A stretch of 64,000 bases of DNA from a virus. The first letter of the stretch is position 1, and each line of letters starts with the position of its first letter. Below the pieces are notes generated by a model. The model was not told the DNA's origin. It searched no databases and worked only from the letters and a program-made list of their open reading frames with translations. Made by a program: the position numbers and the translations under genes. Positions 48,936 through 49,475 of this stretch are shown here, piece after piece. Where the stretch lies: the IMG/VR virus record IMGVR_UViG_3300013426_000031; one strand, 5' to 3'.

Positions 48936-49475
48936 TCCTCCCGTTGGGACTTGAACCCACATCTGGCGATTTATTCATCAATGCTTTCTTAAAATAATTA
49001 AATTAGTTTAATTTATTAATTTGGATTTCAGCTTCATAGTCTTTAGCAAAAGTAATTCCTTTAATCTGTCCATTTTTAGGAGGAAGAAAACGTAATCTTT
49101 TACTATCTGAAACTTCTGATTGAGGGATTAAATAACATTTTCCATTAATCATAGTAGCAAAAAAATCAACCTCCTCATTGGTATAATGCTTTCTAATATT
49201 TCTATTTCTATTCACTCTCATACGAGAGCAATCAATTTTATAAACTCCTTCATCTTCCAAACGAGCACTTTTTACTTGAATTTTATAGAGTTTATTATTA
49301 ATATCTAAAATAAAATCATAGCGAGCATTATCTCCATAAGGAACACTAACTTGATAGCCTAATCCAAATAAATAAGTCATTACTTGTAATTCTGTTAATG
49401 CACCATAATGTTTACTATCTAATTTTACCATTTAAATAAGTCTGATAAATAAGTCGCCGGCTCTCACCAATTGAG
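48936..49475 (-). tRNA. tRNA gene split by a ~465-nt insertion carrying a nuclease ORF
   Basis: 5' part (49441-49475) CCTCTTG-TA-GCTCAATTGGTGAGAGC-C-GGCGA-CTT... 3' part (48936-48980) ...AA-TCGCC-AGATG-TGGGTTCAAGTCCCAA-CGGGAGG-A-CCA. Acceptor pairs with two G.U, anticodon stem GGCGA/TCGCC. Confidence 0.35.
49003..49431 (-). CDS. PD-(D/E)XK-type nuclease (inside the split tRNA)
   Basis: YDFILDINNKLYKIQVKS resembles the D...(D/E)xK catalytic motif. Intact 142-aa ORF. Confidence 0.45.
   Translation of the reverse strand: MVKLDSKHYGALTELQVMTYLFGLGYQVSVPYGDNARYDFILDINNKLYKIQVKSARLEDEGVYKIDCSRMRVNRNRNIRKHYTNEEVDFFATMINGKCYLIPQSEVSDSKRLRFLPPKNGQIKGITFAKDYEAEIQINKLN

Follow-up and report, generated by a model that had tools for sequence, protein, structure and literature searches.

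The tRNA introns of bacteria and their phages are commonly regarded as group I introns that splice themselves, and protein-dependent tRNA splicing as an archaeal and eukaryal trait. Archaeal rRNA introns of the bulge-helix-bulge type can carry homing-endonuclease genes, and SegB of phage T4 is a free-standing homing endonuclease in a phage tRNA cluster. Here we analyze a stretch of 64,000 nucleotides (nt) of viral DNA (IMG/VR virus record IMGVR_UViG_3300013426_000031), from here on the window, in which a tRNA-Ile(UAU) gene is interrupted in its anticodon loop by a 477-nt insert that encodes a predicted homing endonuclease. The closest described relative of this protein is I-Ssp6803I (PF11645; PDB 2OST), whose target DNA is the pseudo-palindromic anticodon arm (PMC3384342), and the cyanobacterial members of the family live in self-splicing group I introns at position 33/34 of tRNA-fMet (PMC13011429). 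Furthermore, the "enigmatic" tRNA introns of Lak megaphages are found in the anticodon loops of stop-codon-recoded gut phages, and their splicing mechanism is not known (Devoto et al. 2019, PMC6784885).

The phage element shares with the I-Ssp6803I intron the endonuclease family, its fold, a site in the tRNA anticodon loop and a homing-type presence/absence polymorphism. It differs from that intron, which sits at 33/34 and has a ribozyme, in that it lacks a ribozyme, is located at 36/37 and occurs in phages, in tRNAs with at least 10 anticodons. The positions 33/34 and 36/37 mirror each other about nucleotide 35 and would fit one conserved 3-nt staggered cut, if I-Ssp6803I cuts with that stagger. 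Like the bulge-helix-bulge introns of archaea and eukarya, which are processed by EndA/TSEN and RtcB, the phage insert lies in the anticodon loop, pairs with the anticodon and has no ribozyme, and an RtcB ligase gene is present in at least one of the carriers, EFP01. However, bulge-helix-bulge introns lie at 37/38 and show two 3-nt bulges with 4 base pairs (bp) between them, whereas the phage insert lies at 36/37 in a continuous helix with junctions 3 bp apart; for the bacterial hosts we know of no EndA. Both the Lak introns and the phage insert interrupt tRNA anticodon loops in stop-recoded phages, but the Lak introns are short, have no open reading frame (ORF) and can look like tRNAs, while the 477-nt insert encodes a homing endonuclease and is not tRNA-like. 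Finally, free-standing PF11645 genes adjoin tRNA-Asn and tRNA-Ile genes, presumably their targets, and lie between tRNAs that stay intact; here the endonuclease gene is inside the tRNA, so that tRNA function could only be restored by removal at the RNA level.

Identity of the interrupted tRNA and position of the insert

The interrupted tRNA-Ile gene was not called in a default ARAGORN run. When introns were allowed, a single tRNA spanning both halves was called at c[48933,49485], and positions 49485-49449 joined to 48971-48933 give a clean 76-nt cloverleaf, which ARAGORN calls as tRNA-Ile(tat). On the minus strand, the 5' half reads CCTCTTG-TA-GCTC-AATTGGTGA-GAGC-C-GGCGA-CTTAT and the 3' half reads AA-TCGCC-AGAT-GTGGG-TTCAAGT-CCCAA-CGGGAGG-A-CCA. 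CCTCTTG/CGGGAGG forms the acceptor stem, in which two of the pairs are G.U, GGCGA/TCGCC forms the anticodon stem, and the cloverleaf shows one G49.A65 mismatch. A first-pass annotation, made from the sequence of the window, had proposed that the anticodon loop of a tRNA gene is interrupted by a PD-(D/E)XK nuclease-encoding insertion, with a consistent acceptor stem containing two G.U pairs and the anticodon stem given above. The split tRNA was confirmed, and both stems are present in the joined cloverleaf. The boundaries had to be moved: the 5' piece starts at 49485 and not at 49475, a range 10 nt short that leaves out the acceptor strand, and the insert has 477 nt (49448..48972) instead of 465 nt.

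The junction was placed by scanning for sequence patterns in which the same exons are directly joined. An uninterrupted allele of the exons of the related loci L002 and L004 was found in L014, with the loop CTTATAA, and two uninterrupted alleles of the exons of L009 were found in L012 and L013, with the loop CTTATAC; all three are called as tRNA-Ile(tat) by ARAGORN. The boundary sequence common to the window and its relatives is CTTAT followed by TT.TC at the 5' junction and GA..AATA followed by AA at the 3' junction. The split into CTTAT and AA is the only one that restores an intact loop; therefore, the insert lies between U36 and A37 and the anticodon is UAU. Furthermore, the tRNA-Asn(GUU) gene is interrupted by 463 nt in the cultured Enterococcus phage EFP01 and is intact in its sibling iF6. 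The stretches that iF6 and EFP01 have in common, 36 nt from the 5' end and 37 nt from the 3' end, make up the entire 73-nt tRNA, so the junction is unique, between U36 and A37, with neither duplication nor deletion. From these comparisons of sequence, the assignment of the interrupted gene to tRNA-Ile(UAU), with the insert exactly between nucleotides 36 and 37, is considered secure.

A different loop had been put forward as possible, CTTAAAA or CTTTAAA, with an anticodon UUA that would read UAA stops; the reconstituted loop is CTTATAA, the anticodon is UAU both in the intron-less alleles and in the predicted spliced product, and a UAA-reading suppressor was rejected on this basis. The assignment to tRNA-Leu(UAA) was also rejected, as there is no long variable arm and the intact loops read UAU. 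Upstream of tRNA-Ile, the site TTGAAA-17-TATAAT is promoter-like by consensus match, which is in itself no proof of function.

Coding content of the insert and absence of a ribozyme

The intact 142-amino acid (aa) ORF described between the tRNA halves by the first-pass annotation was confirmed at 49003..49431 (-). It matches PF11645 (PDDEXK_5) with 99.8 bits (gathering cut-off 26.1) and E=1.7e-28, over profile positions 2-137 of 138. It also matches PHROG 5018 and the homing endonuclease I-Ssp6803I (PDB 2OST, E=1.2e-9), a match that indicates the same fold and in which the YD...QVK segment of the window protein aligns with 2OST. Together with the ARAGORN call, the PF11645 and 2OST matches bear out a tRNA gene split by a nuclease-encoding insert. 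The nuclease fold expected for this ORF was right and the spelling of its motif as D...(D/E)xK was not, since the residues are E14...D39...Q52-x-K54; all four are invariant among 18 homologues with 34-82% identity. Judged from these matches, the sole gene of the insert is an I-Ssp6803I-type PD-(D/E)XK homing endonuclease. Some endonucleases of the family are longer, with 230-239 aa, and P0108 shows a C-terminal extension.

Rfam searches including RF00028 over positions 48700-49700 gave nothing at E<=10, and Rfam searches of six relatives gave no group I intron. The tRNA-Leu(UAA) intron of the window served as a positive control, and RF00028 detects it at 24123-24381 with 43.5 bits (E=1e-9). 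The non-coding part of the insert amounts to 17 + 31 nt (48 nt), and that of the L002 insert to about 17 + 17 nt, so neither has space for a group I catalytic core of about 200 nt. In the window, U36 precedes the junction but the last intron nucleotide is A. Across the insert family, U, G and A all occur at nucleotide 36, and the intron can end in any of the four bases, the complement of nucleotide 34; because both vary, the universal U and the terminal G of group I introns are missing. The insert is a mobile intron without ribozyme, and not a group I intron. At the DNA level, positions 48300-50100 show no similarity to GenBank phages.

Distribution and mobility of the intron family

A protein database search returned 110 homologues, every one of them PF11645, and all those whose metagenome surroundings were fetched are located between tRNA halves. 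A profile scan of IMG/VR added 68 further loci: the ORF is inside a tRNA in about 60 of them, according to ARAGORN, and the remainder are mostly cut by contig ends. From this set, 41 distinct clean introns, with junctions placed from tRNA geometry alone, are distributed among 10 anticodons (UAU, GAU, CAU, GUU, UGU, UUU, UGG, ACG, UGA, and CUU), and manual inspection added His(GUG) and Trp(CCA) hosts. About 70 relatives are located in phage tRNAs, which cover at least 10 anticodons, and the insertion point is 36/37 in every relative where the junction could be placed.

L007 and L008 carry introns identical at 487 of 489 positions (99.6%), while their exons are identical at only 28 of 36 and 34 of 44 positions (78%) and their flanks are unrelated; near-identical introns in such dissimilar exons point to mobility. 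Interrupted and uninterrupted alleles coexist among the relatives: L014 against L002, L012 and L013 against L009, and EFP01 against about 29 other cultured Schiekvirus records, EFP01 being the only carrier of an insert among about 30 cultured Schiekvirus phages. In L007, at 61-872, the locus shows two PF11645-bearing inserts, whose hosts are read as Trp(CCA) and Ile(UAU). In addition, L089 and L092 each show a second PDDEXK_5 ORF nearby, whose location inside a tRNA could not be confirmed. The EFP01 element is found at 1432-1967 of L098 (KY549443.1, ~105242-105777); in GenBank the endonuclease is labelled "hypothetical protein" and the tRNA-Asn is unannotated. In the EFP01 genome, moreover, the terminase, polymerase, recA and nrd genes are split, an IS605 OrfB/TnpB-like gene is present, and the label of RtcB is "hypothetical".

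In Pectobacterium phage My1, in Kuttervirus and Taipeivirus phages and in haloarchaeal tailed viruses, more distant homologues stand free, directly next to tRNA-Asn or tRNA-Ile genes that are intact. Considered together with the tRNA inserts and the cyanobacterial group I introns, these genes indicate an endonuclease family that targets tRNA anticodon arms in three lifestyles, of which the phage tRNA inserts are the ribozyme-less one. No description of phage tRNA introns that bear a homing-endonuclease gene and lack a ribozyme was found in the literature searched, and the widespread family is apparently undescribed. A mobile tRNA intron with a homing endonuclease is a known kind of element, and this one would be categorically new if protein-catalyzed splicing is confirmed.

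A precursor helix that covaries with the anticodon

The last three nucleotides of the intron are the reverse complement of the anticodon. Among the 41 introns and their 10 anticodons, 122 of 123 positions are paired, while shuffled controls gave a mean of 73.8 and a maximum of 90, and none of 2000 shuffles reached 122. Beyond these three pairs, the positions +1:-4 to +7:-10 of the same introns pair with frequencies of 0.59-0.95 and three to six pair types per position, and the frequency is 0.17 at +8:-11. From 33:37 to +1:-4 the pairing frequency is 0.95-1.0, and the helix is continuous. When the anticodon stem of 5 bp, the mismatch 32.38 and the pair 33:37 are counted in, the precursor helix has about 17 bp (7 + 3 + 7), and the distal helix length of 7 is the sole free parameter. 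The two exon-intron junctions are on opposite strands of the helix, 3 bp apart, an arrangement that we infer to be symmetric about nucleotide 35. A shortened precursor was predicted to fold into the same cloverleaf with an extended anticodon arm (z=-3.45).

Two other interpretations of this pairing were rejected. A bulge-helix-bulge register (34:-3 and so on) is a chance fit in the window and does not hold for the Ile(GAU) intron; the only pairs backed by covariation are 34:-1, 35:-2, and 36:-3. Target-site duplication or capture of DNA sticky ends, as the origin of the anticodon complementarity, would give a direct and not an inverted repeat, and the comparison of iF6 with EFP01 shows a junction without duplication.

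Possible demand for tRNA-Ile(UAU) and RNA-repair-like genes

TAG is recoded in a subset of the phage genes. In the TAG-recoded ORFs, which are presumably late genes (Table 1), AUA reaches 31.1 per 1000 codons, compared with 4.5 per 1000 in the standard-code ORFs (7-fold). No other tRNA-Ile was found in the window by ARAGORN, in default mode or with introns allowed, and two tRNAs of the phage may be required for late-gene translation: Sup(CUA), at 24545-24622, and Ile(UAU), the interrupted one. With regard to RNA ligation, EFP01 encodes an RtcB ligase (PF01139, E=3e-59), and in the window a polynucleotide kinase (PF13671; PHROG 505) adjoins a phosphoesterase (PHROG 547). RNA-repair-like genes are located at 9929-11110 (-), 11319-12059, 60124-60897 and 61222-62046: the kinase followed directly, across a TAG, by the phosphoesterase, as well as two more metallophosphatases and a nucleotidyltransferase that matches RlaP weakly.

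Proposed removal of the intron and alternative explanations

We propose that the insert is an intron which would be removed by a protein endonuclease and a ligase, and we give this a probability of roughly 0.55, the case for splicing being drawn from sequence comparison. The covariation, the fixed helix length, the always intact exons, the two invaded tRNAs in L007 and the demand for AUA decoding point to removal at the RNA level and, as there is no ribozyme, removal would have to be by proteins. At the DNA level, the endonuclease would cut the pseudo-palindromic anticodon-arm DNA of uninterrupted tRNA genes, and repair of the break would copy the element into the cut gene (homing). At the RNA level, the precursor would be a normal cloverleaf with a lengthened anticodon stem, in which the anticodon pairs with the final three nucleotides of the intron, and +1 to +7 with -4 to -10, in the helix of about 17 bp. 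A protein endonuclease, encoded by host, phage or intron, would then cut both junctions, and a ligase would join the halves into a functional tRNA-Ile(UAU); this could be RtcB, or an ATP-dependent ligase after kinase/phosphatase healing. The phage would need this tRNA for its AUA-rich, TAG-recoded late genes.

Several points weigh against removal by proteins. We know of no bacterial or phage enzyme that cuts a continuous RNA helix on both strands with a 3-nt stagger, and the bulge-helix-bulge motif is missing from the precursor helix. Neither an RNA ligase nor an EndA was found in Pfam and PHROGs scans of about 30 window ORFs, or in precomputed Pfam matches 10 kb beyond the window, which together cover about 74 kb of the genome of about 184 kb. 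Exact-pattern scans of IMG/VR and JGI metagenomes did not recover the tRNA of the window itself in an uninterrupted form, and the intact exons could be explained by recent invasion alone. In addition, a search for ORF-less derivatives with the pattern CTTATTTRTC-N(4-34)-GAYRAATAAA gave 74 matches in IMG/VR, none of them flanked by tRNA sequences; the short-intron tRNAs in the fetched loci are of the tRNA-like insert type or are ARAGORN false positives. RNase III, which cuts with a stagger of 2 nt, was rejected as the sole cutter, as it would leave an 8-nt loop and by itself no tRNA, although a role in processing is possible.

The main rival, which we consider possible but doubtful, is a selfish insertion that is not spliced: the tRNA would be inactivated, its loss tolerated, and the helix would serve the element as an RNase III site, an mRNA-stabilizing stem or a means of translational control. 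Besides the lack of both a ribozyme and a known splicing enzyme for such a geometry, this explanation is favored by a sporadic and recent distribution (one of about 30 Schiekviruses; near-identical introns in different exons), given which intact exons need not mean selection, by endonucleases of the same family that are free-standing beside intact tRNA genes, and by the failure of the searches made to find ORF-less derivatives. However, it leaves unexplained why the last three intron nucleotides track the anticodon over 10 anticodon types, and why a helix of fixed length continues the anticodon stem coaxially. It is also at odds with the invasion of two tRNAs in one locus (L007), and with an interruption of the sole tRNA-Ile of the window in a phage whose late genes are 7-fold enriched in AUA.

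It is rather unlikely, in our judgement, that the intron is self-sufficient, its own homing endonuclease also cutting the RNA helix at both junctions before a phage or host RNA ligase joins the halves. In this case the 17-bp RNA helix would mimic the left half of the 17-bp anticodon-arm DNA target, with junctions 3 bp apart about nucleotide 35. If true, it would explain the spread across phages of unrelated hosts, the fixed helix length and the lack of ORF-less copies, and these would be the first protein-spliced tRNA introns of the bacterial world.

A self-splicing ribozyme, either of group I, like the cyanobacterial tRNA-fMet intron that carries I-Ssp6803I, or of another type, with its core hidden within the ORF, is very improbable and already largely refuted. 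The nearest characterized relative of the protein is indeed encoded by a group I intron that interrupts a tRNA anticodon loop (PMC13011429), the 5' exon of the window terminates in U, and the tRNA-Leu of the same phage has a true group I intron. Nevertheless, the model that detects this tRNA-Leu intron is silent on the insert and on its six relatives, the non-coding sequence is only 48 nt, the intron ends in A and not in G, nucleotide 36 and the final nucleotide change with the anticodon, and the pairing partner of the 5' exon is the intron's 3' end instead of an internal guide sequence near its 5' end. Scarcely credible, and refuted by the intron-less alleles and the joined exons, is the reading that the 63-65-nt inserts of the same phage have their autonomous, nuclease-bearing counterpart in the 477-nt insert, as the first-pass annotation had suggested, with a UAA suppressor (UUA) or tRNA-Leu(UAA) as the mature tRNA: both kinds of insert do occupy anticodon loops and the phage does recode a stop codon, though that codon is TAG, but the intron-less loops CTTATAA/CTTATAC are Ile with UAU, the long variable arm expected of tRNA-Leu is missing, and the small inserts are tRNA-like and NCCA-ended, whereas the 477-nt insert shows neither feature and has ends unrelated in sequence.

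Other elements in the window

Three further tRNAs of the window carry small anticodon-loop inserts (Table 1), and their hosts are read as Lys(UUU) or Arg(UCU), Glu(UUC), and Pro(UGG). The small inserts are mini-tRNAs with a 7-bp acceptor-like stem, a D-arm and a T-arm GTTCAAATC/GTTCAAAGC, followed by N-CCA. The Rfam tRNA model matches them at 47428-47489 and 44120-44174; it gives no match within 48972-49448, and there is no NCCA at the 3' junction of the 477-nt insert. Their counterparts elsewhere are the "enigmatic" introns of Lak phages (PMC6784885), they have no feature in common with the 477-nt insert, and they raise the question of whether they are removed via RNase P or 3'-end processing, followed by ligation. 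The score of RF00028 on the tRNA-Leu(UAA) intron is just below the gathering score, for which reason this intron is missed by a default Rfam scan and by default ARAGORN.

A full-length ROOL RNA (318 bits) is located at 25453-26040 (-), among the tRNA genes. Another ROOL RNA is beside the interrupted tRNA-Ile of L005, and a "drum" RNA is found just upstream of the interrupted tRNA-Ile of L002 (1315-1443). Two neighbouring proteins that are unusual in a phage, one major-vault-protein-like (MVP shoulder domain, E=1e-20) and the other of the DUF2828/DUF7788 type, are encoded at 13660-16134 and 16668-18185 (-). An SPFH/flotillin protein is encoded at 8534-9916 and a NADAR protein at 12828-13274. 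Three paralogous pairs of a radical-SAM enzyme and a Cys/Gly/Ser-rich repeat protein (CSGGCSG...) are found at 4980-7115, 27536-30332 and 51143-53135 (-); the enzyme of the third pair was identified by a precomputed Pfam match and the other two by eye, from the CxxxCxxC motif. By their sequences, these pairs look like peptide-maturation cassettes. Finally, two paralogous large proteins (PHROG 18912), encoded at 53823-55148 and 57240-58841 (-), show C-terminal clusters of CxxC zinc-ribbon-like motifs.

Table 1. Position of the interrupted tRNA-Ile(UAU) gene, its intron and further tRNA-related features in the window.
Feature	Position	Strand	Details and basis
5' exon, tRNA-Ile(UAU) positions 1-36	49449..49485	-	Last 3 nt are the anticodon UAU (...GGCGA CTTAT); ARAGORN and intron-less alleles of relatives
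Intervening sequence of 477 nt, between U36 and A37	48972..49448	-	Comparison with intron-less alleles; no Rfam family at E<=10
Intron +1 to +7 (UUAUCAG), 5' strand of the distal helix half	49442..49448	-	Pairs with -4 to -10; fold
Homing-endonuclease gene, 142 aa, I-Ssp6803I family (PD-(D/E)XK)	49003..49431	-	Catalytic E14, D39, Q52, K54
Intron -10 to -1 (UUGAUGAAUA), 3' strand of the helix	48972..48981	-	Final AUA pairs with the anticodon UAU
3' exon, tRNA-Ile(UAU)	48933..48971	-	A37 A38, TCGCC, variable loop AGAT, T-arm, CGGGAGG, A73, encoded CCA (48935-48933)
Exon-exon junction, if joined in the window phage			...GGCGACTTAT joined to AATCGCC...
Promoter-like site TTGAAA-17 nt-TATAAT, TG extension	49509..49537	-	Consensus scan, 11/12 matches; about 24 nt upstream of the tRNA 5' end
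Three tRNAs with 58-65-nt anticodon-loop inserts	47523..47383, 44212..44077, 26716..26577	-
tRNA-Leu(UAA) with 290-nt group I intron	24053-24427	-	RF00028, 43.5 bits, E=1e-9, at 24123-24381
TAG-recoded ORFs, examples	27536-36071, 20250-23002, 5817-7115		Presumably late genes

Implications for phage tRNA biology

As the interrupted tRNAs are missed by standard finders, both in default ARAGORN and in the EFP01 record, phage tRNA repertoires are under-counted. The helix that covaries with the anticodon argues for an enzyme-based splicing route in bacterial viruses. If true, the origin and movement of protein-spliced tRNA introns would become testable in a tractable system, and the maturation of the interrupted, AUA-reading tRNA could help to time late-gene translation.

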